Counted from the first letter of the stretch, positions 9,371 through 45,729 are shown. The stretch: 64,000 nucleotides of DNA from Escherichia coli (GCF_041886205.1 NZ_CP169030.1); one strand, 5' to 3'. The notes: generated by a model from the letters alone, not told the origin. Numbers and translations are program-made.

Positions 9371-9465
9371 ATCCGATTAGTTGTTAATCATATTTAATCA
9401 TAGTGATTACATTCAGACCGAACAAGGCAAATAATGCGCATCTGCGCATGTAAGGCAGCATACGG

Positions 9466-9520: not shown

Positions 9521-9566
9521 TCGTCCGAATATCACCAGTCCCACTCCGGCCCTGCGAGGCCATGTG

Positions 9567-16888: not shown

Positions 16889-16965
16889 CATCTAACTTTG
16901 TTTTAGGGCGACTGCCCTGCTGCGTAACATCGTTGCTGCTCCATAACATCAAACATCGACCCACG
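16889..16965. other. attI1 site (copy 1) with cassette junction GTTAGATGC on minus strand
   Basis: Sequence CCCTAAAACAAAGTTAGATGC (minus strand) directly upstream of intI1; boundaries approximate. Confidence 0.6.
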
Positions 16966-17031
16966 GCGTAACGCGCTTGCTGCTTGGATGCCCGAGGCAT
17001 AGACTGTACAAAAAAACAGTCATAACAAGCC

Positions 17032-18045
17032 ATGAAAACCGCCACTGCGCCGTTACCACCGCTGCGTTCGGTCAAGGTTCTGGACCAGTTGCGTGAGCGC
17101 ATACGCTACTTGCATTACAGTTTACGAACCGAACAGGCTTATGTCCACTGGGTTCGTGCCTTCATCCGTTTCCACGGTGTGCGTCACCCGGCAACCTTGG
17201 GCAGCAGCGAAGTCGAGGCATTTCTGTCCTGGCTGGCGAACGAGCGCAAGGTTTCGGTCTCCACGCATCGTCAGGCATTGGCGGCCTTGCTGTTCTTCTA
17301 CGGCAAGGTGCTGTGCACGGATCTGCCCTGGCTTCAGGAGATCGGAAGACCTCGGCCGTCGCGGCGCTTGCCGGTGGTGCTGACCCCGGATGAAGTGGTT
17401 CGCATCCTCGGTTTTCTGGAAGGCGAGCATCGTTTGTTCGCCCAGCTTCTGTATGGAACGGGCATGCGGATCAGTGAGGGTTTGCAACTGCGGGTCAAGG
17501 ATCTGGATTTCGATCACGGCACGATCATCGTGCGGGAGGGCAAGGGCTCCAAGGATCGGGCCTTGATGTTACCCGAGAGCTTGGCACCCAGCCTGCGCGA
17601 GCAGCTGTCGCGTGCACGGGCATGGTGGCTGAAGGACCAGGCCGAGGGCCGCAGCGGCGTTGCGCTTCCCGACGCCCTTGAGCGGAAGTATCCGCGCGCC
17701 GGGCATTCCTGGCCGTGGTTCTGGGTTTTTGCGCAGCACACGCATTCGACCGATCCACGGAGCGGTGTCGTGCGTCGCCATCACATGTATGACCAGACCT
17801 TTCAGCGCGCCTTCAAACGTGCCGTAGAACAAGCAGGCATCACGAAGCCCGCCACACCGCACACCCTCCGCCACTCGTTCGCGACGGCCTTGCTCCGCAG
17901 CGGTTACGACATTCGAACCGTGCAGGATCTGCTCGGCCATTCCGACGTCTCTACGACGATGATTTACACGCATGTGCTGAAAGTTGGCGGTGCCGGAGTG
18001 CGCTCACCGCTTGATGCGCTGCCGCCCCTCACTAGTGAGAGGTAG
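17032..18045 (+). CDS. intI1: Class 1 integron integrase IntI1 (copy 1)
   Basis: 337-aa tyrosine recombinase [49 protein letters not shown]... Confidence 0.95.
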
Positions 18046-18222
18046 GGCAGCGCAAGTCAATCCTGGCGGATTCACTACCCCTGCGCGAAGGCCATCGGTG
18101 CCGCATCGAACGGCCGGTTGCGGAAAGTCCTCCCTGCGTCCGCTGATGGCCGGCAGCAGCCCGTCGTTGCCTGATGGATCCAACCCCTCCGCTGCTATAG
18201 TGCAGTCGGCTTCTGACGTTCA

Positions 18223-18247
18223 GTGCAGCCGTCTTCTGAAAACGACA
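18223..18247. repeat. IRi (25-bp inverted repeat at intI1 end), copy 1, internal
   Basis: GTGCAGCCGTCTTCTGAAAACGACA; followed by TTTGA rather than the CGCCT seen outside IRt. Confidence 0.8.
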
Positions 18248-18329
18248 TTTGAACCGGGAACCTTCCCTTTTTGGCTAGGCGTGAAACAATGGTCATTTTC
18301 CCTATACCCAAAATGACCAGGAGGCCCGC

Positions 18330-18428
18330 ATGAAAGTCGCACGCATCTACCTGCGCGTGAGCACGGAGGAACAAGACCTAAGCCGGCAGGATGCCATCGT
18401 GGAGAGCTTAAATAAGACCGTCCCGTAA
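18330..18428 (+). pseudogene. Serine recombinase (resolvase) N-terminal fragment, truncated after ~27 codons by the 88-bp repeat
   Basis: MKVARIYLRVSTEEQDLSRQDAIVES matches the catalytic-serine N-terminus of resolvases; frame then runs into repeat sequence and stops. Confidence 0.5.
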
Positions 18429-18495
18429 ATTTCAGCCGAATCCGACAAAAAGGCGTGAAGATTTCCTTTAAATAGAGAGACCGAAGGTCATCCTT
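18408..18495. repeat. 88-bp direct repeat, copy A, flanking the tet(M) segment
   Basis: TTAAATAAGACCGTCCCGTAAATTTCAGCCGAATCCGACAAAAAGGCGTGAAGATTTCCTTTAAATAGAGAGACCGAAGGTCATCCTT, identical at 20999-21086. Confidence 0.85.
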
Positions 18496-18648
18496 TTCCT
18501 AAAAAAGGGGGGGGCCATGGTTCCAAGATGTAAAATCGAGGGCTAATTCAGGCTATACTTGAACTATCCTTAATGGAATCTTTAGCCAGCGGTATCAACG
18601 AAGCAAGAAACATCGAAGACTAATTAAAAGAATCCATACATAACGGAA

Positions 18649-18693
18649 AGAGCCGATAAAATGAGATTGTATTAATCTCATTTTATCGGCTCT
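18649..18693. terminator. Long perfect hairpin (19-bp stem) at the 3' end of the small ORF downstream of tet(M)
   Basis: AGAGCCGATAAAATGAGATT-gtat-TAATCTCATTTTATCGGCTCT. Confidence 0.45.
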
Positions 18694-18850
18694 GCGTCTT
18701 TGCGTCTGGCTCTGTAATCGCAGTTACTTTGAACTGCTTTATTTCAATTAAATTTTCTTGTCTGCATTTCGGACAATAGAGGGGGAATTTTTTTAATTCA
18801 GTATCTTCCCTTATCTTTAATCGTGTTTTATTTCCACATACAGGACACAA
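18683..18850 (-). CDS. Small Cys-rich zinc-ribbon-like protein (~55 aa), Tn916 orf6-like, downstream of tet(M)
   Basis: Minus-strand frame CPVCGNKTRLKIREDTELKKFPLYCPKCRQENLIEIKQFKVTAITEPDAKTQSR with TTG/GTG start; below ORF-track length cutoff. Confidence 0.4.
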   Translation of the reverse strand: MCPVCGNKTRLKIREDTELKKFPLYCPKCRQENLIEIKQFKVTAITEPDAKTQSR

Positions 18851-18968
18851 TATCCACTTGTAGTTTATAATAACTATCTCCTCCTTTACACTTTAATTCA
18901 AATCTTTATTAAAAAATATTTCATCTTATTTAACAAGAAACCATATTTATATAACAACATAAAATACA

Positions 18969-20888
18969 CTAAGTTATTTTATTGAACATATATCGTACTT
19001 TATCTATCCGACTATTTGGACGACGGGGCTGGCAAACAGGTTCACCGGTAGTAACATGGTACCCTTTTAACTCTGTTAAACAAACACTACGTCCATTTGT
19101 AAAGAAAGTTAAATCACTACGATATTCTTGAATACACCGAGCAGGGATTTCTCCACTAAGAATGACCTCATTATTTTTCAATTGAGTGTCTACGATGTTC
19201 GCACAATATTTAGGAGCATCGTTGTATGCTCGTGAAAGATATTCCTGTGGCGCATAAATTTTAAAACTAAGATATGGCTCTAACAATTCTGTTCCAGCTT
19301 TTTTTAAGACTTGTTCCAATACAATAGGAGCAAGCATCCGAAAATCTGCTGGGGTACTAACAGGGCTATAGTATAAGCCATACTTAAAACAGATTTTACA
19401 GTCCGTCACATTCCAACCATACAATCCTTGTTCACAGCCATAGCGTATCCCTTCCATAACTGCATTTTGAAATGATTGATTTAAGTATCCAAGAGAAACC
19501 GAGCTCTCATACTGCATTCCACTTCCCAACGGAAGCGGTGATACAGATAAACCAATGGAAGCCCAGAAAGGATTTGGCGGCACTTCGATGTGAATGGTAT
19601 ATTCTGCATTTTTTAACGGTCTCTCCATATAAATGACTGTAGGCTCTTTTAGTTCTATCTCCACATGATACTTTTCTTGCAACAGTGCACTAATCACTTC
19701 CATTTGTACTTTCCCTAAGAAAGAAAGTATAATTTCATGTGTCGTAGAATCCACGTAATATCGTAGAAGCGGATCACTATCTGAGATTTCCAAAAGGGCA
19801 TCAAGCAACATTTCTCTCTGTTCAGGTTTACTCGGTTCAACAGTTGTTTGTAGTAGAGGGTGCGGATTTTCAATCTTTTTTCTCTGTGGCAATAGTTTTG
19901 TATCTCCAAGAACACTATTTAACTTCAAAAACTCATTTTGCAAAATAACAATTTCCCCGGAATAAGCCTTATCGATTTTACATAATTCACCATTTATTGA
20001 AGTATACATTTCTGTAATTTTTATTTTTTCCTTTTCCGATATTCTAACCGAATCTCGCAAATGCAGTACGCCACTATAAAGACGTATATATGCAAGACGT
20101 TGTCTTTTTTTTGTATATTCAATTTTGAAAACATTTCCGCAAAGTTCAGACTGACCTCGATGTGTTGATGAATAAAATTTATTCGTAATCACTTCTATAA
20201 GGTTATCAATCCCTATATTGTTTTTTGCACTTCCATGATAAAGAGGGAACAGAGAACAATTCTGAAATCTTATGCTTTCCTCTTGTTCGAGTTCCAATGC
20301 TTCTAATGATTTACCGGACATATATTTCTCTAAAAGGTCATCGTTTCCCTCTATTACCGTATCCCATTGTTCAGATTCGGTAAAGTTCGTCACACACATA
20401 TTAGGATACAGTTCTACCTTCTGTTTGATTACAATTTCGGCAGAAAGTTTCTCTTTAATATCCTGATAAACCGTTGATAAATCAATTCCATTTTGGTCAA
20501 TCTTATTGATAAAAAAGATTGTGGGAATCCCCATTTTCCTAAGTGCATGAAATAATATACGAGTTTGTGCTTGTACGCCATCTTTTGCAGAAATCAGTAG
20601 AATTGCCCCATCTAAAACTGATAATGAACGATATACTTCTGCTAAGAAATCCATATGTCCTGGCGTGTCTATGATGTTCACCTTCGTATTTTCCCACTGA
20701 AAAGAGGTTATTCCTGTCTGAATTGTAATTCCTCTCTGACGTTCTAAAAGCGTATTATCCGTCCTCGTTGTACCTTTGTCCACGCTTCCTAATTCTGTAA
20801 TCGCTCCACTGTTATATAATAAGCTTTCTGTTAAGGTAGTTTTTCCCGCATCAACATGAGCTAAAACTCCAATATTAATAATTTTCAT
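18969..20888 (-). CDS. tet(M): Tetracycline resistance ribosomal protection protein Tet(M)
   Basis: 639 aa starting [30 protein letters not shown] (translational GTPase motifs); the ORF-track frame begins 5 codons upstream. Confidence 0.95.
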
Positions 20889-20903
20889 GTGATTTTCCTC
20901 CAT

Positions 20904-20990
20904 TCAAAAGCCCAAAAGGGCATAAAAATCCCAGTGATAAATACTCTTATCACTGGGATTTTTATGCATAACCATAGGCATACAAAGCAT
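20904..20990 (-). CDS. tet(M) leader peptide (28 aa) of the transcriptional attenuator
   Basis: MLCMPMVMHKNPSDKSIYHWDFYALLGF immediately upstream of tet(M), as in Tn916. Confidence 0.7.
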   Translation of the reverse strand: MLCMPMVMHKNPSDKSIYHWDFYALLGF

Positions 20991-20998
20991 ACAGATAT

Positions 20999-21086
20999 TT
21001 AAATAAGACCGTCCCGTAAATTTCAGCCGAATCCGACAAAAAGGCGTGAAGATTTCCTTTAAATAGAGAGACCGAAGGTCATCCTT
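20999..21086. repeat. 88-bp direct repeat, copy B, flanking the tet(M) segment
   Basis: Identical to 18408-18495, same orientation. Confidence 0.85.
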
Positions 21087-21134
21087 GAAGAAGGAGTCCT
21101 CGGTGAGATTCAGAATGCCGAACACCGTCACCCT
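21087..21134 (-). pseudogene. sul1: sul1 5' fragment (codons ~2-17 only), joined on one side to the 88-bp repeat and on the other to truncated attI1
   Basis: Minus strand reads (V)TVFGILNLTEDSFF, the N-terminus of Sul1 dihydropteroate synthase, lacking its ATG and everything after codon ~17. Confidence 0.7.
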
Positions 21135-21200
21135 GCTGCGTAACATCGTTGCTGCTCCATAACATCAAACATCGACCCACGGCGTAACGCGCTTGCTGCT
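21133..21200. other. attI1 (copy 2), truncated: lacks the GTTAGATGC crossover end
   Basis: Sequence identical to copy 1 from CCCTGCTGCGTAACATCG onward, but the cassette-proximal ~25 bp are replaced by the sul1 fragment. Confidence 0.6.
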
Positions 21201-21247
21201 TGGATGCCCGAGGCATAGACTGTACAAAAAAACAGTCATAACAAGCC

Positions 21248-22261
21248 ATGAAAACCGCCACTGCGCCGTTACCACCGCTGCGTTCGGTCAAGGTTCTGGA
21301 CCAGTTGCGTGAGCGCATACGCTACTTGCATTACAGCTTACGAACCGAACAGGCTTATGTCCACTGGGTTCGTGCCTTCATCCGTTTCCACGGTGTGCGT
21401 CACCCGGCAACCTTGGGCAGCAGCGAAGTCGAGGCATTTCTGTCCTGGCTGGCGAACGAGCGCAAGGTTTCGGTCTCCACGCATCGTCAGGCATTGGCGG
21501 CCTTGCTGTTCTTCTACGGCAAGGTGCTGTGCACGGATCTGCCCTGGCTTCAGGAGATCGGAAGACCTCGGCCGTCGCGGCGCTTGCCGGTGGTGCTGAC
21601 CCCGGATGAAGTGGTTCGCATCCTCGGTTTTCTGGAAGGCGAGCATCGTTTGTTCGCCCAGCTTCTGTATGGAACGGGCATGCGGATCAGTGAGGGTTTG
21701 CAACTGCGGGTCAAGGATCTGGATTTCGATCACGGCACGATCATCGTGCGGGAGGGCAAGGGCTCCAAGGATCGGGCCTTGATGTTACCCGAGAGCTTGG
21801 CACCCAGCCTGCGCGAGCAGCTGTCGCGTGCACGGGCATGGTGGCTGAAGGACCAGGCCGAGGGCCGCAGCGGCGTTGCGCTTCCCGACGCCCTTGAGCG
21901 GAAGTATCCGCGCGCCGGGCATTCCTGGCCGTGGTTCTGGGTTTTTGCGCAGCACACGCATTCGACCGATCCACGGAGCGGTGTCGTGCGTCGCCATCAC
22001 ATGTATGACCAGACCTTTCAGCGCGCCTTCAAACGTGCCGTAGAACAAGCAGGCATCACGAAGCCCGCCACACCGCACACCCTCCGCCACTCGTTCGCGA
22101 CGGCCTTGCTCCGCAGCGGTTACGACATTCGAACCGTGCAGGATCTGCTCGGCCATTCCGACGTCTCTACGACGATGATTTACACGCATGTGCTGAAAGT
22201 TGGCGGTGCCGGAGTGCGCTCACCGCTTGATGCGCTGCCGCCCCTCACTAGTGAGAGGTAG
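21248..22261 (+). CDS. intI1: Class 1 integron integrase IntI1 (copy 2, identical protein)
   Basis: Identical 337-aa translation to copy 1; one silent nucleotide difference noted. Confidence 0.95.
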
Positions 22262-23049: not shown

Positions 23050-26016
23050 ATGCCGCGTCGCTTGATCCTCTCGGCCACGGAGCGGGACACCCTGCTTGCG
23101 CTGCCGGAAAGCCAGGATGACCTGATCCGCTACTACACCTTCAACGACTCCGACCTGTCGCTGATCCGCCAGCGACGCGGCGACGCCAACCGCCTCGGCT
23201 TCGCCGTGCAGCTCTGCCTGCTGCGCTACCCCGGTTACGCGCTGGGAACCGACAGCGAGCTGCCCGAGCCGGTCATCCTGTGGGTGGCGAAGCAAGTCCA
23301 GGCCGAGCCGGCGAGCTGGGCAAAGTACGGCGAGCGCGACGTGACCCGTCGCGAGCATGCCCAGGAACTGCGCACCTACCTGCAACTGGCCCCGTTCGGC
23401 CTGTCCGACTTCCGCGCCCTGGTGCGCGAGCTAACCGAGCTGGCCCAGCAGACCGACAAAGGCTTGCTGCTGGCCGGTCAGGCCCTGGAGAGCCTACGGC
23501 AGAAACGACGCATCCTGCCGGCGCTGAGCGTGATTGACCGGGCCTGCTCGGAAGCCATTGCGCGAGCCAATCGGCGGGTCTACCGCGCCCTGGTCGAACC
23601 ACTCACGGACTCGCATCGGGCCAAGCTGGACGAGCTGTTGAAGCTCAAGGCCGGCAGCAGCATCACCTGGTTGACCTGGCTGCGCCAGGCACCGCTGAAA
23701 CCCAACTCTCGGCACATGCTGGAACACATCGAGCGGCTGAAGACATTTCAGTTGGTGGACTTGCCCGAAGGCCTGGGCCGGCACATCCACCAGAACCGCC
23801 TGCTCAAGCTGGCCCGCGAGGGTGGGCAGATGACGCCCAAAGACCTCGGTAAGTTCGAGCCGCAGCGCCGCTACGCGACCCTGGCCGCCGTGGTGCTGGA
23901 GAGCACCGCGACCGTGATCGATGAGCTGGTCGATCTGCATGACCGCATCCTGGTCAAGCTGTTCAGCGGCGCGAAGCACAAGCATCAGCAGCAGTTCCAG
24001 AAGCAGGGCAAGGCGATCAACGACAAGGTGCGCCTGTACTCCAGGATCGGCCAGGCGCTGCTGGAAGCGAAGGAAAGCGGCAGCGACCCCTATGCCGCCA
24101 TCGAGGCGGTGATTCCCTGGGACGAGTTCACCGAGAGCGTCAGCGAGGCCGAGCTGCTGGCCCGGCCGGAAGGCTTCGACCACCTGCACCTGGTCGGCGA
24201 GAACTTCGCCACCCTGCGCCGTTACACGCCGGCCTTGCTGGAGGTGCTGGAACTGCGCGCCGCGCCGGCCGCGCAAGGCGTGCTGGCAGCCGTGCAGACC
24301 CTGCGTGAGATGAACGCCGACAACCTGCGCAAGGTGCCGGCCGATGCACCCACGGCCTTCATCAAGCCGCGCTGGAAGCCGCTGGTGATCACCCCGGAAG
24401 GCCTCGACCGGAAATTCTACGAAATCTGCGCCCTGTCCGAGCTGAAGAACGCCCTGCGCTCCGGCGACATCTGGGTCAAGGGCTCGCGGCAGTTCCGCGA
24501 CTTCGACGACTACCTGCTGCCGGCCGAGAAGTTCGCCGCACTCAAGCGCGAGCAGGCCCTGCCCCTGGCGATCAACCCGAACAGCGACCAGTACCTGGAA
24601 GAGCGTTTGCAGCTGCTGGACGAGCAGTTGGCCACCGTCACCCGCCTGGCCAAGGACAACGAGCTGCCCGATGCCATCCTCACCGAGTCAGGGCTGAAAA
24701 TCACCCCGCTGGATGCGGCGGTGCCGGATCGGGCGCAGGCGCTGATCGACCAAACCAGCCAGTTACTGCCGCGCATCAAGATCACCGAACTGCTGATGGA
24801 CGTGGACGACTGGACGGGCTTCAGCCGCCACTTCACCCACTTGAAGGACGGGGCCGAGGCCAAAGACAGGACGTTGCTGCTGTCCGCAATCCTCGGTGAT
24901 GCGATCAACCTCGGGCTGACCAAGATGGCCGAGTCGAGCCCCGGCCTGACCTACGCCAAGCTGTCCTGGCTGCAAGCCTGGCACATCCGCGACGAAACCT
25001 ATTCGGCGGCCTTGGCCGAGCTGGTCAACCACCAGTATCGCCACGCCTTTGCCGCCCACTGGGGCGACGGCACGACCTCATCCTCCGATGGCCAGCGCTT
25101 CCGCGCGGGTGGCCGGGGCGAGAGCACCGGGCACGTCAACCCGAAGTACGGTAGCGAGCCGGGACGGCTGTTCTATACCCATATCTCCGACCAGTACGCG
25201 CCGTTCAGCACCCGCGTGGTGAATGTCGGCGTCCGCGATTCCACCTATGTGCTCGACGGCCTGCTGTACCACGAGTCCGACCTGCGGATCGAGGAGCACT
25301 ACACCGACACGGCCGGCTTCACCGATCACGTCTTTGCCCTGATGCACCTGCTAGGCTTCCGCTTCGCGCCGCGCATCCGCGACCTCGGCGAAACCAAGCT
25401 GTACGTGCCGCAGGGCGTGCAAGCCTACCCGACGTTGCGCCCGCTGATCGGCGGCACCCTGAACATCAAGCACGTGCGTGCCCACTGGGACGACATCCTG
25501 CGCCTGGCCAGCTCGATCAAGCAGGGCACCGTCACCGCCTCGCTGATGCTGCGCAAGCTCGGCAGCTACCCGCGCCAGAACGGACTGGCCGTGGCCCTGC
25601 GCGAGCTGGGCCGGATCGAGCGCACGCTGTTCATCCTGGACTGGCTGCAAAGTGTTGAACTGCGCCGCCGCGTGCATGCCGGCCTGAACAAAGGTGAGGC
25701 GCGCAACTCGCTGGCCAGGGCGGTGTTCTTCAACCGCCTTGGGGAAATCAGGGATCGGAGCTTCGAGCAGCAGCGCTACCGGGCCAGCGGCCTCAACCTG
25801 GTGACGGCGGCTATCGTGCTGTGGAACACGGTGTACCTGGAACGCGCCACCCAGGGGTTGGTCGAGGCCGGCAAGCCGGTGGACGGCGAGCTGCTGCAAT
25901 TCCTGTCGCCGCTGGGCTGGGAGCACATCAACCTAACCGGCGATTACGTCTGGCGGCAGAGCCGCAGACTGGAAGACGGGAAGTTTCGGCCCTTACGGAT
26001 GCCCGGAAAACCTTAG
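23050..26016 (+). CDS. tnpA: TnpA transposase (Tn3 family, Tn21/Tn1721 subfamily)
   Basis: 988-aa ORF ending inside the terminal inverted repeat. Confidence 0.9.
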
Positions 26017-26049
26017 CGTACGATTTTTTCCGAATTCTGCGGGCTCCCC
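26012..26049. repeat. Right 38-bp terminal inverted repeat of the Tn1721-like transposon
   Basis: Reverse complement reads GGGGAGCCCGCAGAATTCGGAAAAAATCGTACGCTAAG. Confidence 0.8.
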
Positions 26050-26190
26050 TTGTTTGTACGATTCGATATCGATACTGCGTAATGGCCGGTACTTCCCTGT
26101 ACCCAGCTTAAGATTATTACGCCAGACATCATCCCCATTAAGATTGATATGCTCCCAGCCCAACGGCGAAAGGTGAGTGCAGTTGGTCAT
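26050..26190 (-). pseudogene. 3' remnant of a second Tn3-family tnpA, inverted and abutting the outer end of the transposon IR
   Basis: Minus-strand translation [31 protein letters not shown] parallels the TnpA C-terminus [31 protein letters not shown]. Confidence 0.5.
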
Positions 26191-26319
26191 TAATCGGGAG
26201 CTTTTTTCGTTTCAGGGACTCAATGGCTCTTTCTATGTATACCGTGTTCCATAATTTTTCACTCCGTTGAAAACGGAGTACGTGGCAATCGTATCAGTGA
26301 TACAGTTGAGGCAATTGAC

Positions 26320-26520
26320 ACGAATACCCTTTCCGGTATTGATGGCATCAGTTGAAGAGCATGTTATTCTCTTGAGCTATTTGTGCCACACAGGCGCGGG
26401 GGGCGTTTTTTACCACGGGGACTTCGGGCATAAAAACAAGGGGCCGCAAACACGGCCCTTAATTCAGATCTAACCGGGTACGCTATCTGTTGCCCTGGAA
26501 AATTGATCTGACAACTCAGT
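26320..26520. mobile_element. Rearranged IS66-family remnant
   Basis: 26330-26430 resembles the region around 34460-34640 of the intact IS66-family copy; 26466-26513 resembles, in opposite orientation, 32307-32350. Confidence 0.45.
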
Positions 26521-26567
26521 AAAGATCAATACGGTTCTGACGAGCAGCTTACCTGCCTGTTTGCGTT

Positions 26568-27863
26568 TCAGAGCTTATTCTCTGCTGTCTGATAGCCACG
26601 GCTGAGACGAACAAACAGCATTGCCGTTGCGGCGAGTCCGCATAGCGCCGCGCACATGAGCCACCACCCCGGAGAACTCTTATCGCCGGTCAACTGGACC
26701 AATGCGGTGGAGATAGCAGGCGTCAGGCCGCCGAAAATCGCAGTCGCAAGACTAAAGGCCAGCGAAAAACCCACGGTTCGGACATAAACCGGCATCACTT
26801 CGGTCAGGGCCGCCACCATCGCACCGTTATACATGCCAAAAAAGAACGAGAACCAGAGCAGCACCAACGTCATGCGGGTGAAGTCAGGGGCAGCGGTAAG
26901 CCAGTTCATCACCGGCCAGGTGGTGACGAGGGCGAGCAAGGTGATGCCCATCAGCACCGGGCGTCGCCCGATCCGATCAGAGATAGCGCCGCCAATCGGC
27001 AGCCAGATGAAGTTAGAAATCCCTACCAGCATGGTGACAACCAGGCTGTCACGTGCGCTCAGGTTCAACACCGTTCTCCCGTAAGTGGGGGTATAGACAG
27101 TAATAAAATAAAAGGTCGTGGTCGTCATCGCTACCAGCAGGGTACCCGCGGTGATGATGCGCCAGTTTTTAGCAATGGTGGTAAAAATTTCCCGGGTGTC
27201 CGGACGGTGTTTACGTTGTAAAAAGGCTTCAGTTTCCTGTAGCGAACGTCGAAGAACAAAAATCAGCGGAATAATCATGCAGCCAATGAAGAACGGGATT
27301 CGCCAACCCCATTCGGAGATTTCATCGTGTCCCAGCGTGACATTCAGACCGTAGCCGATCAGCGCGGCGACGACAATCGCCACCTGCTGGCTGGCCGATT
27401 GCCAACTGGTGTAAAAGCCTTTATTGCCTGGTGTAGCGATCTCAGAAAGATAAACAGAGACGCCGCCCAGTTCGACGCCAGCAGAAAATCCCTGTAGCAG
27501 ACGCCCCACCAGGACCAGCACGGGAGCCAGCAGGCCGATAGTCTGATAACCCGGCACGAGGGCGATGAGCAGCGTGCCGCAGCCCATAATCGCCAGGGTG
27601 ACCATCAGCCCTTTCCGTCGGCCGATTCTGTCGATATATGCGCCCAACACCACGGCCCCGATAGGGCGCATTAAAAATCCGGAGCCAAAAACGGCAAAAG
27701 TAAGCATTAATGCGGCAAACTCACTTTCGGCAGGAAAAAACGTCTTTGCGATATAAGTGGCGTAAAAACCAAACAGGAAAAAATCGAACTGTTCGAGAAA
27801 ATTACCGCTGGTCACACGCAGTATTGCGCCGAACGTGCCAGCGCGCGATGGTTGTTGAGTCAT
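26568..27863 (-). CDS. tcuC: TcuC-like MFS transporter (tricarballylate/citrate uptake)
   Basis: 431-aa 12-TM MFS protein immediately downstream of tcuB. Confidence 0.7.
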
Positions 27864-27917
27864 TGAAGTTGCTCCACTGTCTTATCAGAATTATGTATAG
27901 AGGTAAGAGTTTGCGGG

Positions 27918-29057
27918 TTAGTCGCCTGAGACCCCCGCCTGTTTTCCACGTCGCTTCTCAATCGCCCATTTGAGTAAAGACGCGCAGCGGTAAAATCCGT
28001 GGGCAAATTTTCCGTATGGAATGGTCAAAAAAAGCGCCATGACCACGCCAAGATGGATGGCAAGCAGGATCCCCATCCATGAGGTGTCTCTTCCCGCCAG
28101 CAAACCTATACCGGTCAGGCTGGTCAGGAGCAGCAGTAAAATAAAACCGCGATCCATCGGTTTCTGTCGCGCGTCGCCATGCAGTGGCGAGCGCTTAAGG
28201 TTTAACCACAGCAGGCCTGCCGGGCCGACAATTAAACCGATTCCTCCGAGCGTGCCAAGCATGACCGGCACGCTGAAGAACGGGTAGGGGGCTTCCCAAC
28301 CGGCGAAGTAGTGGTAACCCGTCGCCACCACGGTCGCGGCGAAACAGAGCATAAAGCCGTAGAAGGTGAAATGGTGGAAACGACGACGCATCAATGTGAA
28401 AGCATCGTCCGCCTCGTTGCAGCCTTTGCCATGACCGCCGTCGAGGTATTTCAGCGTCAGCGCGTTGTGCGACGCTTCGGCAATTTCCGCCGGACGCGGC
28501 CCGACGTGAGAGATCTCGCGCCAGAAGCGGATCACCCCTGCCATTAGTAAACCGATCGCCAGCATGAAAACCGATCCAAACATCCATGCCAGCAGGTTGT
28601 GCGGGAAGATTTGGTAGAAATCACCGGCCAGCGGCGGATGGAGTAGCGATCCCTTCATCCCCATCGCGAGGAGTAAAAAGAGGATCAGACTAAAGACCAG
28701 TGCCAGCGTCACGGTGACGCCAGCCTGGCGATACAGCGCCCCGAAGGCCGCCGGTTGCGCGTAGTGTTGATACGTTTCCAGACGCACTTCCGCCATTGCT
28801 TTCGGCACGTTAATCGCAAACTCATGGGGTGGAGCATACTGGCAGGCGTGCAGGCAGGCGCCGCAGTTATGGCACAGGTTTGCCAGATAGTTAATGTCGG
28901 CTTTGCCAAATTCCAGTCGCTGAGTCATCGCCGGGAACACGGCGCAAAACCCTTCGCAATAGCGACAGGCATTACACACCTGCATCACCCGCTCGACTTC
29001 AGCTTCTGGCTCGGTGAGAATTTTGGCCTCGATGATCAGTTTTTCAAGCTGCTTCAT
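27918..29057 (-). CDS. tcuB: TcuB membrane iron-sulfur protein
   Basis: N-terminal [11 protein letters not shown] and [11 protein letters not shown] cysteine clusters followed by TM segments; probable start MKQLEKL, ORF-track frame extends 27 codons upstream. Confidence 0.75.
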
Positions 29058-30447
29058 GATGCGCCTCCTTACGTGCTGCCTGCGCGGCTTCTTTACCTGC
29101 GATGCGACCAAACGTGGTGCCGATGGACATGCCGACACCGGCGGTATAGCCCTTGCCCAGTACGTTGCCAGCCATCATCTCACCGGCAACGAACAGGTTA
29201 CGGCTGGGGGTGCCTGCGAAGTGAACCGCAGCGTGTTCATTCACTTTCAGTCCCAGGTAGGTAAAGGTGATCCCCGGTCGCAGGGCATAACCGTAGTAAG
29301 GGGGCGTATTAATAGGCCGCGCCCAGTGCGTTTTCGGTGGCGTCAGGCCCTGAGTCGCGCAGTTATCCAGCTTCGTGTGATCAAACTGACCCGGCTGACA
29401 GGCCTGATTGTAGTGCTCCACGGTATGGGTAAAGCGTTCGGGATCCAGCCCCAACTGGCGGGCCAGTTCACTCAGCGTATTGGCCTGTGCGCCGGGGAAA
29501 ACCGGCGGCATAAAGTGACCGATCGCTTTGCTGTCGATAATGGAGTAGCCAATCTGCCCCGGCTGTTGGGCAACCAGACGCCCCCAGATGGCATAGCGTT
29601 TCGGCCAGAAATCTTCGCCTTCATCGTAAAAGCGCTCCGCGTCCCGGTTGACTACCACACCCAGTGAGACGCAATCCACGCGGGTACAAATGCCGCCGTC
29701 GTACAACGGAGCCCGGGCATCAATCGCCACACAGTGGGACTGAGACGGATCGCCGATAATGTCAGCACCGGCATCGATCATAAACTTGAGCAAGACGCCC
29801 TGATTAAAGCGGGTGCCGCGAATGAGGAAGTTATCGGCTGGCCATTCGCCACGAGCGTTCTCTCCCCAGGCGTCGCGCAGCCATTCGCGGTTGGATTCAA
29901 ATCCACCGGCGGCGAGTACGCAGGCTTTCGCCTCAATGCGCTCGTGGCCTGCCAGGGCTGCGATGAATTCGCCGTTGTGCAATTCAAGTGCCTGTACCGG
30001 CGTGTTGTAGCGAATCTGTACCCCCAGCTTTTCTGCGCTGCGGTAATAGGCGTTCACGAGGGCTTTACCGCCGCCCATGAAGAAGGCATTGGTACGCGCC
30101 ACGTGCAGCGCGCCAGAGAGCGGAGGCTGAAAATTAACGCCGTGATGACGCATCCAGTCGCGACACTGGGAAGAGGTCCGGATCACCAGTCGCGCCAACG
30201 CTTCATTGGTATTGCCTTCGGTGACACGCCAGAGATCCTGCCAGAACTCCTCTTCGGGATAACTCTCGACCAGCACATCCTGTGGCGCATCGTGCATACA
30301 GCGTAAATTGCGCGTGTGTTGGGAATTCCCGCCGCGCCATTCCCGGGGCGCAGCCTCTAACAGCAGCACGGAAGCTCCTGCCTCACGGGCGGTTAAGGCG
30401 GCACATAACGCGGCATTACCACCGCCAATCACCAGTACATCAACCAT
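29044..30447 (-). CDS. tcuA: TcuA FAD-dependent tricarballylate dehydrogenase
   Basis: 467 aa, N-terminal dinucleotide-binding motif [17 protein letters not shown]. Confidence 0.8.
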
Positions 30448-30543
30448 CGTCTACTCCATTACCATTTAACTATTTGTTAAATTTGTAATTGAAATGTATA
30501 CGTATGATTGTATGGGCGCTATAACGAATAGCTAAAGATGGGT

Positions 30544-31470
30544 TTAGGGAGCGTAAAGGGTTGCGCCCGGCCAATGACCGGTTTCAACGAGTTCACGCAT
30601 GACTTTTGTGAGTATTACGCGGACTGCAAGACCGGCAGGGGTGAGTTCATCGTCCGACAGACTGACCAGAAAATTGGGGCGGCTGAGGACAGGATTATGG
30701 ACGCCGATCACTCTTAGCGCTTCCCTCTCAAGATGCGAAATGGCTGCACCGGGTTGCAGCGTGGCGCCGAGTCCGCTGCTAACGGCGCGCATCAGTAACG
30801 TCAGGCCGTCAATTTCCGTGGCAATATCGACCTTCAGTCCGTGTTCCTGACAGATGGCTTCCAGTCTGCCACGCAGGCCGTGTCCCTGGCTTGGCATGAT
30901 CAGGGGAATATTCGCCAGTTGAGCAGGCGTTATGGTGTCATCCGGAATATCCGCCAGCAGCTCGTGTGTGCCAATCAGAAACAGGCGCTCCTCAAGAACC
31001 GGTCTGGCGTTCCAGCGCAGGATTTTCTCTTTTTGAAACACGACCGCCAGATCAATCTGGCGCGTGTTGATCATCCGTTCCAGATTACCCGACAGGCTTT
31101 CCACCACATGCAGGCGAACGTCGGCGTAATGTTCCCGCATGGCATGAATAAACGGTATTCCCAGGATGGAGGCGGTGCTGGGGGCCATGCCGACGCTGAC
31201 GTGTCCAGAGAGACGCGCCTCGCGAGAGGCCAAGATCGCATCATCGGCGTGGCGTAGCGCCAATTGTGCCTGCGAGTAAAAAGCCAGACCGGCGTTAGTG
31301 GGCGTGACGCCGCGCGAGGTTCGTTGCAACAGACGAATGGAGAGTTCATTCTCCAGCCTCGTCATCTGTTGACTAAGTGCTGAGACACCGATACCGAGAT
31401 CAAGCGCCGCAATGCCCATACTACCGGTTTCCACAATACGAACAAAATAACGTAGCTGGCGAAGTTCCAT
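30544..31470 (-). CDS. tcuR: LysR-family transcriptional regulator (TcuR-like)
   Basis: 308 aa, N-terminal LysR HTH MELRQLRYFVRIVETGSMGIAALDLGIGVSALSQQMTRLE. Confidence 0.7.
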   Translation of the reverse strand: MELRQLRYFVRIVETGSMGIAALDLGIGVSALSQQMTRLENELSIRLLQRTSRGVTPTNAGLAFYSQAQLALRHADDAILASREARLSGHVSVGMAPSTASILGIPFIHAMREHYADVRLHVVESLSGNLERMINTRQIDLAVVFQKEKILRWNARPVLEERLFLIGTHELLADIPDDTITPAQLANIPLIMPSQGHGLRGRLEAICQEHGLKVDIATEIDGLTLLMRAVSSGLGATLQPGAAISHLEREALRVIGVHNPVLSRPNFLVSLSDDELTPAGLAVRVILTKVMRELVETGHWPGATLYAP

Positions 31471-31650
31471 TGCGATTCTCCGGAGAAGGCTGGGATATTT
31501 ACATTAAATCAACATGCTGTCAGAAGAAAGCACTAAGTAGAGAATGGCGCGCATAACAAAACAACCGACAGGTTGACTTTTCAGAATAGGGGCAGTTTGG
31601 TGATCGTCACCAGTATATGCAGCGTCAGCTGCATGGAAGGCGGCACGCTG

Positions 31651-31707
31651 TGGTTACATGTGATACCGGAGTAAAACCGCCGAAGCCCGGCGTAAGCCGG
31701 TACGGAT
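31651..31707. repeat. Copy 2 of the ~55-bp imperfect direct repeat
   Basis: GGTTACATGTGATACCGGAGTAAAACCGCCGAAGCCCGGCGTAAGCCGGTACGG, compare 9466-9520. Confidence 0.5.
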
Positions 31708-32254
31708 TGACAGATTTCACCTTACCCATCCCTTGCCCTGCCAGACCATACCTGCTTTCAGCCATGACAGAGCTTTTGTGCGCGGTCGGAGTGGTCCCGA
31801 CGAGGGTTTACCCGAAGTCGGGGCGTATCTCCGCGTTAGCGGGCCATCAGGGCCGCTTACGAGCGTGTACTCAATACTTCCAGCGAGAAGACTGACAGCG
31901 ATGAAGATGTAGTTACAACATTCATAATTAAAAGCGACTCTGTTCCGGCCCTTTGGGCCGGGGCGGGGCCGCTTTTCAGTTATGAGGGTGGGGCTTTGTG
32001 GTTTCGGTTCTGCGCTGGACCGGGGTTTTTCTTGGTGGTTCTGTTTGTGTGTTGTAACTAAAGTGGCTCCGGTCGGGGCCCGCCGCTTGCGGTGGGAGGT
32101 GCATATCTGTCTGTCCACAGGACAGGCAGTGAATAGGTTTTCTTTTTAAATGAATGTAATTAAGTAGTTTAAAGGAGATATAAACAGGTGTTTAAAAGAT
32201 ACATTGCACCCTGTAAGGCTGGCGGCTGGCGCTTTATGACATGAACGGTTGTAA

Positions 32255-32262
32255 CCTTATGA
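32255..32262. repeat. 8-bp target-site duplication (CCTTATGA), left copy, of the IS66-family insertion
   Basis: Same octamer at 34963-34970. Confidence 0.6.
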
Positions 32263-32293
32263 AGTAAGCGACTCGTCAGAACCGTATTGATAT

Positions 32294-33865
32294 TTACTGA
32301 GAGCTCAGATCAACTTTCCAGGGCAACAGATCGCGTACCCGGTTTGCCGGCCAGTCCTGGATATGTTCAATGACGTAACGCAGCCACTTTTCTGGCTCCA
32401 CATTGTTCAGACGGCATGTGCCGATCAGCGAGTACAACACCGCCGCATGTTCACCACCGCTGTCGGAACCCGCGAACATCCAGTTTTTCCGGCCTACGGC
32501 CACTCCCCGTAAGGCGTTCTCTGCGATGTTGTTGTCGATTTCCACCCAGCCATTACTGCAGTACACGTTCAGTGCATCCCACTGTTTCAGCAGGTATGCG
32601 AACGCTTTTGCCGTATCTGAGTGACGCGACAGTGTTTTCATCTGTTGCTGTATCCAGTCATACAGTGACTGCATCAGTGGCGCGGCTCTGGCTTTTCTTG
32701 CCGCCAGACGCTGTTCTGCTGAACAGCCCCGGACCTCTGCCTCGATGGCATACAGTTCACCGATACGCTGCAGGGCTTCCGTGGTGATGTAGGTGGACGC
32801 TCTTGCATGCACATCGTGGATTTTTCTCCGGGCATGAGCCATACACGCGGCTTCCGTTATTCTGCCGGATTCGTATAACGCCCGGTAACCACCGTAAGCA
32901 TCGGCCTGAAGCACACCGCTGTAACCGGCCAGGTGATTTTGTGGATGGATACCTTTCCGGTCCGGACTGTACGCGAACCAGACCGCCGGGGGCATCTGTG
33001 AACCGGCGTTACGGTCATCACGGACGTAGACCCACAGCCGGGCTGTCCGGGTTTTACCGCTGCCCGGCTCCTGGACCGGGACGGGGATATCATCAGCATG
33101 GACTTTACCGGGCATCAGCACATACTGGCGCAGGACGTCATACAGCGGCTCCAGCAGTTCAGCAACAGCACCTGTCCAGCGCCCCAGTGTGGCACGGCTC
33201 AGCTCCACTCCCTGACGACGGTATATTTCTGACTGGCGGTATAACGGCAGATGGTCTGCATATTTCCCGGTGACAACATGGGCCAGAAGCCCCGCTCCGG
33301 CATAACTGCGTGCAATGGGTTTTGAAGGTACTGGTGCCTGCACGATATGGTCGCACCGGCAACAGGCCTGTTTCGGACGTTGTGTTTCGATAACCTTAAA
33401 GGCGCTGCTGATAAGCTCCAGTTGCTCTGACACATCACATCCCAGAGAACTGAGTTCACCACCACAGGCAGGACAGCATTCCTCTTCCGGCCGGATAACC
33501 CGGGTTTCACGGGGAAGTGAGGCCGGTAACGGTTTACGGGCTGAAGACTGGCGCAGGGCGGATGGCAGTACCGGGTCATATTGCTCACCCAGCGTTTCCG
33601 CCATTTCTTCCTGAAGTGCGCTGATTCGCTCCTGTGCTTCCTGTATCTGCCGTTCGGTTTTTGCACGAAGTTTTTCTGAGCTTTTACCGAACTGCATACG
33701 TTGCAGTTTCGCAACCAGCGCCTTCAGCCGGTTGATTTCGGAAGCATAAGCCGCCACCCGCTGTGAGAGCAGGCGGTTGTATTCAGCCATCTGGCGGATG
33801 GTGTCCTGTTGCGTCTGCAACAGTGCCCGCAGGCGGGCGTTCTCATGAGCAAGTGAGGTGTCCAT
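32294..33865 (-). CDS. tnpC: IS66-family transposase TnpC
   Basis: 523 aa with N-terminal leucine zipper, CxxC zinc-finger (CPACGGEL ... CRCDH) and DDE region. Confidence 0.85.
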
Positions 33866-33884
33866 ATCCTCACTTTACAACGGG

Positions 33885-34232
33885 TTATATGCGGATTCCA
33901 GCGCGTTCCGTTCGTTTCGGGTGCTTCCAGTTGATACCTTCAAGAAGCATGGATAACTGAGCCGGAGTAAGGTGCACCTTGCCGTCACGGGTGACTGGCC
34001 AGACGAAGCGGCCCCGCTCCAGGCGTTTGGTGAAGAGGCACAGTCCGTCACTGTCAGCCCACAACACTTTTATCTGGTCACCCCGGCGTCCGCGGAAGAT
34101 GAACAGGTGTCCGGAGAACGGGTCATCCTTCAGGACGTTCTGAACTTTTGATGCCAGGCCGTTAAAGCCATTTCGCATATCGGTGATACCTGCAACCAGC
34201 CAGATACGCGAACCTGCAGGGAGAGATATCAT
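33885..34232 (-). CDS. tnpB: IS66-family accessory protein TnpB (Orf2)
   Basis: 115 aa typical IS66 Orf2. Confidence 0.8.
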   Translation of the reverse strand: MISLPAGSRIWLVAGITDMRNGFNGLASKVQNVLKDDPFSGHLFIFRGRRGDQIKVLWADSDGLCLFTKRLERGRFVWPVTRDGKVHLTPAQLSMLLEGINWKHPKRTERAGIRI

Positions 34233-34879
34233 CAGTGGCTGCTCCCTTTTATTTCGCGGATAAGTGTCTGTAATAACGCCGGCGTCAGTTTACCTTTAAG
34301 CCTGAGAGTTCCGGCCGGCAGAACCAGCTCACAACACAGACTGTCGGACGGTGTATTTATCTGCTCTGGTTCCTGTGCGGGGGCCGGGATTTTATTATCC
34401 GGCTCCGGCGTTAACGTCACGGGAAGCAGTGCCGGCATATTTTTTCCGGAAGGCAGCAGGCCACCTTTCCGGTATTGATGGCGCCAGTTGAAGAGCAGGT
34501 TATCGTTGATTCCGTTTTCCCGGGCGATCTGCGCCACACAGGCTCCGGGCTGCAGTGACTGCTCCACTAAGGCGATTTTAAACTCATAAGGGAAGTTGGG
34601 CCGCCGGGGACGTTTTTTTACCACGGGGGCTTCGGATATAACGGTGCTTTCAGGACGTACGACTGGTACCGTGGAAAATTGTCCGTAAAGGCAGGCATCA
34701 AGTTCCTGCTCCGACATGCCTGCGGGCAAAGGCCACGAAAGGCCAGCTCTCCGAAAGCGCACGAACATACTACAAACTGTTGATTTTGGTACACCCAGGC
34801 GACGCCCGGCCACAACCCGGGGTAAATGTTCTTCAAAGTGAAGACGTAAAGCTTCAGTGATCCAGGTCCGGTGTTTCAT
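34232..34879 (-). CDS. tnpA: IS66-family accessory protein TnpA (Orf1, HTH)
   Basis: Frame 34232-34909; probable start at MKHRTWITEALRLHFE. Confidence 0.7.
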   Translation of the reverse strand: MKHRTWITEALRLHFEEHLPRVVAGRRLGVPKSTVCSMFVRFRRAGLSWPLPAGMSEQELDACLYGQFSTVPVVRPESTVISEAPVVKKRPRRPNFPYEFKIALVEQSLQPGACVAQIARENGINDNLLFNWRHQYRKGGLLPSGKNMPALLPVTLTPEPDNKIPAPAQEPEQINTPSDSLCCELVLPAGTLRLKGKLTPALLQTLIREIKGSSH

Positions 34880-34962
34880 ACGATAGTGTCCATTAAAAAT
34901 GATGGACATTATTTTTGTAGAGCCGGAGGAAACAGACCAGACGGTTTAAATGAGCCGGTTAC

Positions 34963-34970
34963 CCTTATGA
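34963..34970. repeat. 8-bp target-site duplication (CCTTATGA), right copy
   Basis: Matches 32255-32262. Confidence 0.6.
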
Positions 34971-35174: not shown

Positions 35175-36032
35175 TCAGGGGGAATCTGTGGCCAGCCGGC
35201 TGTAATTACGGTTACGTGACAGAATCATGCGCTCTTTCACACGACGCTCCACTTCGCGTTTTACCGCCTCACGATTGGCAGTGAAGCGCCCTTCCGAGAT
35301 TTCACGCGTCAGCTGCCGTTTCACCAGGGTGACGATATCCTGACGTTCCCTGTTCGCATCACGACGCGCACGGGCACGTTTTATTCCACGGGACTTAAGC
35401 TCTGTCTGGTAACTGCGGAAACGCTCACGCACAAAACGCCAGGCTTTCGCTATCAGTTCATCCATACCCAGGGTATCCAGTCCCTGCTTTTTGCGCTGTC
35501 TGTTTTCCCATTCAACACGACTGCGGCGCGCAGCAACCACTGCATCCTCAGACACATCAAGGGCGGCAAATAGCGCCGGTGTGAACGTGATATCGGTCGG
35601 AATGTAGCACCCGATAAGCGGATCATATTCCGTCTGGTAGGTAATCAGTCCCAGCTCTGCAAGGAACGTCAAGGCTCGGGTGGCCCGGGTGATGGAGAGT
35701 TTTCCGGCAGCAGACTCCGTCGCCAGTCCGCACTCAATGGCCAGCGTAGTGATGGAGCACTGGACGCGGTTGGCCAGCGGGTCATAGTGAAAACACAGCC
35801 CCTGCAGCAGCGCATCAATAGCCCGGCGACGCAGTACCGGTGGCATGCGCCGACGCAGTCCCTTCGAACGAGCATGTGCCACATGAATGGCGAAATCAAA
35901 ACGGGAGGTGAAGCCCACCGCCTTTTCCATCAGTTTTTCGCAGAACTTCAGCGTTCCGGCACCTTCACGGGGTGTGAACACCGGATTCGGGTTTTTAACC
36001 TGTGAATAGTATTTTTGAAGGAGATCAGCCAT
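35175..36032 (-). CDS. repA1: IncFII replication initiator RepA1
   Basis: 285-aa protein [41 protein letters not shown]...; ORF-track frame extends 13 codons upstream. Confidence 0.9.
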
Positions 36033-36108
36033 GTCCCCCTCCAACACTATTCCCCCTCCTACGGGCGGCAACTAGCTCGTCTGGGCCGACACGTAAAGTT
36101 TCGAACAT
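36025..36108 (-). CDS. Probable tap/repA6 leader peptide translationally coupled to repA1
   Basis: Short frame [27 protein letters not shown] terminating just inside the repA1 start, as for IncFII leader peptides. Confidence 0.35.
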
Positions 36109-45648: not shown

Positions 45649-45729
45649 AAACGTATATCCCTTTGACATATCCCGGCATCAATCCCACAATGGATATACA
45701 CAAGACATATCCACATAAGGAGGCAAATA

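Follow-up and report, generated by a model that had tools for sequence, protein, structure and literature searches.

A complete tcuRABC cluster, closest to that of Citrobacter amalonaticus, on an IncF resistance plasmid of Escherichia coli

Plasmid-borne citrate and tricarballylate genes have been known in E. coli since around 1980; tricarballylate is formed in the rumen from trans-aconitate. The 1985 report of Sasatsu et al. is said to give ORF sizes of 431 aa (a 1296-bp ORF) and 379 aa, as in the DNA described here, and a 1.9-kb fragment with only the 431-aa ORF was reportedly enough for Cit+. In the work of Lewis et al. 2004, TcuC alone reportedly allowed growth of E. coli K-12 on citrate, and tcuABC growth on tricarballylate. 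The tcuA product is a tricarballylate dehydrogenase, that of tcuB a FADH2:quinone oxidoreductase and that of tcuC a transporter (PMC10468695, citing Lewis et al. 2004, 2006). In the IncHI1 plasmid R27 the genes are named citA/citB, for citrate transport (PMC7366339); papers on IncHI1 plasmids speak of a 'citrate operon' and of citrate-utilisation genes, and Tn3411 has been described as a transposon for citrate utilisation. The references cited for the Cit+ plasmids of E. coli and Tn3411 are Ishiguro 1982 and Sasatsu 1985.

We analysed a 64,000-nucleotide stretch of E. coli DNA, called hereafter the window. It contains an IncFII RepA and F-type TraI (40378-45669) and TraD (46364-48517), its best database matches are plasmids, and it belongs to an F-type conjugative multidrug-resistance plasmid; an earlier note on this DNA was thus right to place it on a plasmid and not on the chromosome. 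R27 carries the same cluster with 95.9% nt identity. Judged from its sequence, the tcuRABC of the window is the citA/citB determinant, the classical basis of plasmid citrate utilisation, and public plasmid records already list this module under the name tcuRABC. The earlier note had presented plasmid carriage as notable; it is not, for a classical determinant with 99.3-100% identical copies in 16 E. coli plasmids.

Table 1. Features in and around the tcu cluster (window coordinates)
Feature	Position	Strand	Remarks
Tn1721/TnAs1-type Tn3-family transposon, 38-bp terminal inverted repeat	26012-26049		read from sequence
Second Tn3-family transposase gene, 3' remnant, pseudogene	26050-26310	-	PGAP on identical NZ_AP024116 stretch
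IS66-family debris	26328-26552		BLAST vs ISCro1: 92% over 73 nt; 92.5% over 40 nt
tcuC terminator hairpin, leftover 3' arm	26553-26567	-	IS66 end in place of 5' arm
tcuC (= citA)	26568-27863	-	MFS tricarballylate/citrate:H+ symporter, 431 aa
tcuB (= citB)	27918-29057	-	membrane 4Fe-4S electron-transfer protein, 379 aa, two CxxCxxCxxxC motifs
tcuA	29044-30447	-	FAD-dependent tricarballylate dehydrogenase, 467 aa
tcuR-tcuA intergenic control region	30448-30543	-	conserved dyads CTAAA-N6-TTTAG and TTAAC-N5-GTTAA directly 5' of tcuA
tcuR	30544-31470	-	LysR-family activator, 308 aa
Native tcuR upstream region	31471-31589	-	includes fur terminator, 31562-31575 (terminator-like site found)
IncFII replicon conserved segment, distal edge (backbone)	31603-32262		PLSDB matches
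ISCro1, intact IS66-family element	32263-34962	-	NF033517, 478 bits; Pfam TnpB_IS66 and HTH_Tnp_1
ISCro1 genes	tnpA 34232-34909, tnpB 33885-34232, tnpC 32294-33865	-	
IncFII repA (replication initiator)	35175-36071	-	TIGR03474, 581 bits, cut-off 447

An ORF scan found the four minus-strand genes listed in Table 1, none of the four with an internal stop. ORFs, NCBIfam and Pfam together identify a complete tcuRABC set, intact and located to the base where the earlier note had put it. The longest ORF for tcuB is 27918-29138, and its 379 aa are counted from the conserved annotated start. The tcuA/tcuB overlap of 14 bp is the same in Salmonella and Citrobacter. TcuA scored 791 bits with the equivalog model NF006130 (cut-off 369) and 687 with TIGR02485 (373), TcuB 712 with NF011607 (524) and 391 with TIGR02484 'CitB' (247), and TcuC 733 with NF011656 (445). 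Scores with the equivalog and subfamily models were thus 1.4 to 2.1 times the cut-offs, and chance was ruled out for the gene identities (E = 1e-214 to 1e-238). TcuA matched Pfam FAD_binding_2, both CxxCxxCxxxC motifs were visible in the TcuB translation, and TcuR matched HTH_1 and LysR_substrate. For TcuR, no dedicated NCBIfam model scored above its cut-off, the best model (NAC) falling below its own; the PGAP label of the protein identical to the window's LysR is TcuR. All four proteins are exact matches of public sequences, and the one identical to TcuC bears the source names 'tricarballylate/proton symporter TcuC' and 'Citrate-proton symporter'. 'CitB' is the name that KEGG, TIGRFAM and Pfam use for TcuB.

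The earlier note had named two findings that would overturn it, proteins of a different FAD-oxidoreductase/transporter family or a chromosomal window. Both are for practical purposes ruled out, the former by the family scores and by 87-95% aa identity with their syntenic counterparts in Salmonella, the latter by RepA, TraI and TraD and by the plasmid matches. Matches to flavocytochrome c, ketosteroid dehydrogenase and ProP-type proteins were far below cut-offs.

The LysR regulator gene lies directly 5' of tcuA, in the same orientation. An alignment of the tcuR-tcuA region from seven genera revealed a near-invariant block of 47 nt, in which the window equals Salmonella, and this block is a putative TcuR operator/promoter. 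A sigma-70 promoter scan gave nothing over background (2 sites, versus 3.5 expected). By analogy with the orthologous, characterised system of Salmonella, TcuR would sense tricarballylate and activate tcuABC through the conserved operator between tcuR and tcuA, and TcuC would import tricarballylate, and citrate too, by proton coupling. The FAD enzyme TcuA would convert tricarballylate to cis-aconitate, which would enter the TCA cycle, and TcuB, with its two 4Fe-4S motifs, would reoxidise the TcuA flavin and pass the electrons to the respiratory chain. Because E. coli has, to our knowledge, no aerobic citrate carrier and no tcu, the plasmid should confer on it both growth on tricarballylate and the classical Cit+ phenotype.

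Comparison with chromosomal relatives placed the cluster next to C. amalonaticus. Identity over the four genes was 98.3% nt with the C. amalonaticus chromosome, versus 80.9% with Salmonella, and reached 97.9% over 5042 bp when both intergenic flanks were included; in a neighbour-joining tree the window was sister to C. amalonaticus. Protein identities to C. amalonaticus and Salmonella were 99.8% (one of 431 residues differs) and 94.7% for TcuC, 98.7% and 88.9% for TcuB, 99.1% and 92.7% for TcuA, and 97.7% and 86.7% (syntenic protein) for TcuR. The dN/dS ratios versus Citrobacter, R27 and Salmonella were 0.02-0.19 (0.02-0.07 for tcuC). At the nucleotide level, tcuR was 96.4% identical to Citrobacter, below the other genes, and only 87.8% to R27, which indicates mosaicism. 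The chromosomal tcu site is fur-ybfN in Salmonella and in Citrobacter, with the gene order of the window. In Citrobacter the divergence of tcu follows that of its flanks (93.8% versus 96%), and therefore the operon is native there. The earlier note, which regarded the operon as usually chromosomal in Salmonella-like genomes, was correct as to the native chromosomal location, identified here as fur-ybfN, but the closest source found is the C. amalonaticus chromosome at this locus and not Salmonella. This donor call is based on one C. amalonaticus assembly (GCA_023035355.1, L084), and in a species-wide scan none of C. amalonaticus, C. farmeri and Salmonella was among the matches listed; a closer source may therefore exist.

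The chromosome-derived segment spans 5.0 kb (26553-31589), and BLAST against L084 gave endpoints of 26555-31588. In the junction alignment, R27 and two Citrobacter chromosomes keep the full tcuC hairpin, AAGCGGGCGGAGATATCTCTCCGCCCGCTT. In the window an IS66 terminus (GTAAGC...) meets the module at 26552, in the loop of this terminator, and defines one exact edge of the captured DNA. On the tcuR side, the homology with the Citrobacter chromosome ends 6 nt past the fur stop codon, and no IS end is present at the junction (31589/31590). More than 5000 PLSDB plasmids match the window from 31603, 31610 or 31617 onward (92-96%), that is, from beyond the tcu module, the exception being the top match, AP024116. 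The IS-mediated capture proposed earlier is therefore only half supported: an IS66-family end cuts the tcuC terminator hairpin, but the tcuR-side junction has no counterpart. An IS66-family element inserted earlier in the terminator probably took part in the capture, and the tcuR-side junction would be the product of recombination or of a deletion where the module borders on the FII replicon segment. Neither the donor assignment nor the base-exact capture junctions were found in the literature searched.

The IS66 debris consists of a tnpA-like piece (26328-26433) and an ISCro1-like end (26472-26552, about 81 nt) in opposite relative orientation. The latter and the ISCro1 end at 32264-32344 are inverted repeats of each other (90%), and this 81-nt repeat is most likely the ~55-bp repeat of the earlier note. 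A border of IS66 debris is indeed present on the tcuC side, but the tcuR-side IS66 element is intact. That ISCro1, about 790 bp from tcuR, is flanked by an 8-bp target duplication, CCTTATGA (32255-32262 and 34963-34970, boundary +/-1 nt), and its empty site is visible in AP024116. Insertion at the same site, annotated ISCro1, was found in at least 51 other plasmids, whose best matches are not among the tcu carriers; one that was checked is without tcu. Because of its own duplication and its presence at this site outside the tcu carriers, ISCro1 is no evidence for the capture: it is an independent simple insertion, and arrived separately. An IS66-family composite transposon, with two complete IS copies around the cargo and a target duplication shared by their outer ends, was rejected, since the debris, rearranged and 225 bp long, is not a complete IS, and since ISCro1 is flanked on either side by an 8-bp duplication of its own and occurs at the site without tcu. 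Identity with Tn3411 was likewise rejected: no IS3-family ORF or repeat (IS3411) brackets the cluster, and its neighbours are Tn3- and IS66-family debris next to tcuC and, beyond tcuR, FII backbone with ISCro1.

As described earlier, the cluster stands between a transposon, whose terminal repeat ends at 26049, and the replicon, with repA 3.7 kb past tcuR. The 38-bp repeat, which we take to be the Tn1721 terminal repeat, is the outer edge of a resistance region with tet(M), a class 1 integron and a Tn1721-type transposon. The transposon's TnpA ORF (23050-26016) scored 1289 bits with the Tn3 transposase model, and PGAP names its homologue 'TnAs1 family'. Database matches nos. 3-9 of the window begin at 26050, where the second transposase remnant starts; PGAP calls the identical NZ_AP024116 stretch a Tn3-family transposase, partial and frameshifted, and this remnant and the end of TnAs1 tnpA are inverted repeats of each other (72%).

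Among 5426 complete E. coli genomes, 36 (0.7%) carry the tcu cluster; of the places where it lies, 26 are plasmid-borne and 11 chromosomal. Sixteen complete E. coli plasmids have the 4.9-kb cluster with 99.3-100% identity, many with it about 1 kb from IncFII repA, and all four genes are intact in these and in the window. The near-identical plasmids come from humans, veal, calves, cattle and wastewater, and their resistance regions are rearranged. Related copies were gained independently by IncHI1 plasmids and E. coli chromosomal islands, and such repeated acquisitions argue for repeated positive selection. Some sister copies are decaying: an ETEC sister plasmid has a frameshifted tcuA and an intact transporter gene, and elsewhere tcuC is truncated or the cluster partial, one copy keeping tcuRAB with part of tcuC lost. 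Selection thus does not act on every copy in E. coli.

We assign a probability of roughly 88% to a joint explanation: a captured piece of chromosome beside the IncFII replicon, with the function expected from its orthologues, a capture in which IS66 took part on one side, and a separate ISCro1. A possible but clearly less probable reading is that citrate uptake alone matters, TcuC (CitA) giving Cit+ and tcuR, tcuA and tcuB being passengers. It agrees with the naming of the R27 homologues for citrate transport, with the 'citrate operon' of the IncHI1 papers and the description of Tn3411, and with the ETEC plasmid that has lost the tcuA frame and kept the transporter. The 431-aa ORF on a 1.9-kb fragment, reportedly enough for Cit+ in Sasatsu et al. 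1985, fits as well. However, the four genes are intact here and in the 16 near-identical plasmids, dN/dS is as low for tcuA and tcuB as for tcuC (though the divergence may mostly predate the capture), and the sister copy that lost part of tcuC keeps the three supposed passengers; moreover, both phenotypes can coexist.

It is improbable that the cluster is a silent hitch-hiker, beside the replicon by chance and kept via selection for resistance genes. It does adjoin the indispensable FII replicon and a large region with tet(M), the class 1 integron and the Tn1721-type transposon, its carriage is rare, and some copies are pseudogenised. Against this, it has stayed intact and 99.3-100% identical across human, veal, calf, cattle and wastewater plasmids despite rearranged resistance regions, it has kept its native regulator and operator, and it was gained independently by IncHI1 plasmids and chromosomal islands.

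As far as sequence comparison goes, tcuRABC on this IncF plasmid is real, ordinary and already known, with a phenotype that we infer. What is added here is the donor lineage (the C. amalonaticus group, not Salmonella), the exact junctions and the finding that ISCro1 is unrelated to the capture. Plasmids of this kind, known from humans, veal, calves and wastewater, tie a carbon-source trait to transferable multidrug resistance, and E. coli made citrate-positive by them may confuse classical identification. A more speculative proposal, which we consider unlikely, is that the IncF tcu is a recent, direct, IS66-made capture from a C. amalonaticus-like chromosome, providing a dual citrate/tricarballylate niche trait in calf and cattle E. 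coli. If it were true, with tcu locked to the FII replicon and to tet(M)/integron/Tn1721, antibiotic use and diet would co-select one plasmid.

Among the closest known systems are the other IncF tcu plasmids (for example NZ_AP024116 JML285_P2; CP063715, from veal; NZ_CP103720). They share with the window the operon (99.3-100% identity), the Tn3 and IS66 debris next to tcuC, the junction with the FII backbone and, at 100% identity, the tet(M), integron and Tn1721 resistance region. The window differs by the extra ISCro1 between the tcu flank and repA, by another repA allele (94.9%) and by lacking a ~5.5-kb tet(A) segment. R27 has the same four genes, and a citrate-uptake phenotype is expected in both, but it is IncHI1, not IncF, and its junctions differ: it retains some 30 bp from the 3' end of fur and the whole terminator, followed by an ISNCY transposase, and the mosaic tcuR of the window is 87.8% identical to its tcuR (nt). 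The Salmonella tcuRABC resembles that of the window in its four genes, their order, orientation and 14-bp overlap, the control region and 87-95% aa identity; in contrast, it is chromosomal, at fur-ybfN, 80.9% identical in nucleotides, with a TcuC of 434 aa versus 431 aa, and its tcuC terminator is not truncated by an IS66 end. In C. amalonaticus L084, tcuRABC has fur and ybfN on its two sides and an intact terminator, whereas fur and ybfN have been lost from the plasmid copy.

Four open reading frames, all on the minus strand, were found exactly where a tcuRABC tricarballylate utilisation cluster had been claimed (4/4; coordinates are listed in the table), and the feature is genuine and intact, under the right name. 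TcuA, TcuB and TcuC scored far above the curated NCBIfam cut-offs, and so do not fall into a different protein family. For tcuB, the start at 29057 was retained, as it is common to all annotated homologues (the longest reading frame is 27918-29138); tcuA and tcuB overlap by 14 bp, and two CxxCxxCxxxC motifs were seen in the TcuB translation. For TcuR, no dedicated model among those of NCBIfam passed. It shares 86.7% identity with the Salmonella protein encoded at the same position, and an identical protein is named TcuR by PGAP. All four genes (4/4) are intact, with dN/dS values of 0.02-0.19 in every comparison. A 47-nt block of the tcuR-tcuA intergenic region, with two dyads in it, matches Salmonella at every position; a promoter scan returned 2 sites, versus 3.5 expected. 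The location on a plasmid also held, since IncFII RepA, TraI and TraD are encoded in the window, which is an F-type conjugative plasmid.

Coordinates of the tcu module, its borders and other features of the window
Feature	Position	Strand	Remarks
ORF	1054-1953	minus	CAP12/Pycsar-type TIR effector domain, PF10137, E = 4e-37
ORF	3334-5472	minus	712 aa, AAA_13 domain, without NCBIfam match
Stretch beside Tn1721 chemotaxis-protein-like gene	9446-9543		98 nt, 78% identity to 31631-31728
tet(M)/intI1 region	16915-22261
intI1 copies, identical	17032-18045, 21248-22261		on either side of tet(M)
Direct repeats, perfect	18408-18495, 20999-21086		88 nt, bracketing tet(M)
tet(M)	18969-20903	minus
Tn1721/TnAs1-type transposon	ends at 26049		38-bp terminal repeat
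Another Tn3-family transposase gene	26050-26310		3' remnant
IS66-family debris	26328-26552		two pieces, opposite relative orientation
tcuC	26568-27863	minus	431 aa; NCBIfam TcuC family 733 bits, cut-off 445
tcuB	27918-29057	minus	379 aa; NCBIfam TcuB family 712 bits, cut-off 524
tcuA	29044-30447	minus	467 aa; NCBIfam TcuA family 791 bits, cut-off 369
tcuR (LysR gene)	30544-31470	minus	308 aa; both LysR domains
Native DNA upstream of tcuR	31471-31589		119 bp
IncFII replicon segment, distal edge	follows 31471-31589		conserved
ISCro1	32263-34962		intact, 2.7 kb; 8-bp duplication CCTTATGA at flanks (32255-34970); then repA

The module is not new: public records already carry its annotation, and the modest novelty lies only in assigning the donor and in fixing the junctions to the base. 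Public sequences that match the four proteins exactly are spread over roughly 800 to more than 1000 contigs. Among 5426 complete E. coli genomes, 36 carry a tcu cluster, located on a plasmid in 26 places and on a chromosome in 11. Of the complete E. coli plasmids in RefSeq, 16 share the entire operon with the window at 99.3-100% identity, many of them with its start about 1 kb past repA, and 11 PLSDB plasmids have the same module, debris and FII junction at 98.5-99.8% identity.

Regarding the source of the module, a TcuA scan across species listed mostly Burkholderiales, and Salmonella, C. amalonaticus and C. farmeri were not among the matches listed; relatives were instead found through exact-protein look-ups. 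TcuC of one Citrobacter amalonaticus assembly differs from that of the window at 1 of 431 residues, and its contig carries a chromosomal tcuRABC between fldA-fur and ybfN-chiP-glnS-nagE, a synteny shared by Citrobacter sp. CFNIH2 and Salmonella. Across the four tcu genes, nucleotide identity to the window was 98.3% for the C. amalonaticus chromosome, 96.0% for the IncHI1 plasmid R27, 96.0% for a copy in an E. coli draft genome, beside a fimbrial cluster, 92-95% for E. coli chromosomal-island copies, 93.3% for CFNIH2 and 80.9% for Salmonella. In a neighbour-joining tree, the window and an identical IncF copy were sister to C. amalonaticus, and every E. coli mobile copy was nested in the Citrobacter clade. 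Judged by these comparisons, the closest source found is the C. amalonaticus group rather than a Salmonella-like genome (98.3% versus 80.9%). The E. coli chromosomal copies were also rejected as a source, being less similar (92-96%) and located in islands, not at the fur site. The island adjoins a fimbrial usher/chaperone cluster and lies away from the fur-ybfN site; on an IncHI1-like plasmid of an ETEC strain, tcuA is frameshifted. The divergence of the operon is about equal to that of its flanks, both between two Citrobacter genomes (93.8% identity against 96%) and when Citrobacter is compared with Salmonella (80.8% against 84-85%), a pattern that marks the operon as native to these chromosomes.

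Capture of the operon from a chromosome by an insertion sequence, as had been proposed, stands for one junction only: an IS66 end is present there, but no IS was found at the other. The window and the Citrobacter chromosome are homologous over 26555-31588. On the tcuC side, this homology stops within the tcuC terminator hairpin: alignment of the junction showed the IS66 terminus (GTAAGC...) inserted in the hairpin's loop. The terminal 81 nt of the debris (26472-26552) match the ISCro1 end at 32264-32344 in inverted orientation, at 90%, and are most likely what had been described as a repeat of about 55 bp. On the fur side, homology ends 6 nt past the fur stop codon, with the fur terminator kept. 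From 31603-31617 onwards follows an IncFII segment common to more than 5000 plasmids, whose matches, except for the top hit, begin past the tcu module.

The intact IS66-family element probably meant in the earlier proposal is ISCro1, and it is unrelated to the capture. It is missing from the closest tcu plasmid (NZ_AP024116), where the empty site is visible, and it occupies the same site, downstream of IncFII repA, in at least 51 other PLSDB plasmids; ISCro1 is thus an independent insertion. The best matches of these plasmids lay outside the tcu carriers, and in the one examined, which is without tcu, a CAAX-protease gene and pemIK come after ISCro1 in its place. The common site points either to a hot spot for insertion or to common descent of the replicon segment. 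A composite IS66 transposon bracketing tcu was excluded on the same ground, together with the fact that the tcuC side holds rearranged debris. Identity between the repA regions of the window and of the closest tcu plasmid is only 94.9%, pointing to a replicon swap by recombination.

The resistance region of the window comprises Tet(M), two intI1 copies and a Tn3-family transposon, and lies upstream of the module with 100% identity to plasmids of veal and human origin. The tet(M)/intI1 structure is likewise 100% identical in the veal and human plasmids; the tet(M) segment looks like a Gram-positive-type sequence that entered a class 1 integron setting by insertion or was duplicated inside it. 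In NZ_AP024116 and its veal relative CP063715, a Tn1721 segment of about 5.5 kb (tetR/tet(A), an EamA-family gene and a truncated tnpA) stands between the TnAs1 tnpA and the tcuC flank. It is missing from the window (region compared, 25000-26050), a difference that deletion by recombination between two tnpA copies would explain. Elsewhere, the 98-nt stretch resembling the replicon-distal IncFII backbone that adjoins tcuR (31631-31728) may be left over from the flank of a second F-type replicon, and the TIR-effector and AAA_13 reading frames could be an anti-phage defence pair carried by the plasmid.

With respect to function, E. coli K-12 reportedly grows on citrate with TcuC alone and on tricarballylate with tcuABC (Lewis et al. 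2004). The expected phenotype should include citrate uptake. By orthology to the Salmonella system, TcuR would activate tcuABC when tricarballylate is present, TcuC would import the substrate, TcuA would oxidise tricarballylate to cis-aconitate, and TcuB would pass the electrons back to the membrane. PMC10468695, citing Lewis et al. 2004 and 2006, summarises what TcuA, TcuB and TcuC do.

Under other names, the cluster is the known plasmid citrate-utilisation determinant. Its R27 homologues are named citA and citB, "involved in citrate transport" (PMC7366339), and comparative papers on IncHI1 plasmids call it the "citrate operon" or "genes for citrate utilization". TcuB is still labelled CitB in TIGRFAM, Pfam and KEGG, and a transporter identical to that of the window is named "Citrate-proton symporter" by sources. 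Descriptions of natural Cit+ plasmids in E. coli and of the transposon Tn3411 date from 1982-1988. The window copy is not Tn3411, since no IS3-family copies flank it. Identical BLAST endpoints (26553-31589) might be read as a single capture shared by R27 and the window. Alignment of the junctions excluded this reading, because these endpoints are set only by the junctions of the window and R27 reaches further into fur and the terminator. R27 retains the complete tcuC hairpin together with some 30 bp from the 3' end of fur; its cluster is less trimmed than that of the window and is probably an independent derivative. Moreover, R27 and the window share only 87.8% identity in tcuR, compared with about 99% in tcuA and tcuB, which shows that the cluster is mosaic.
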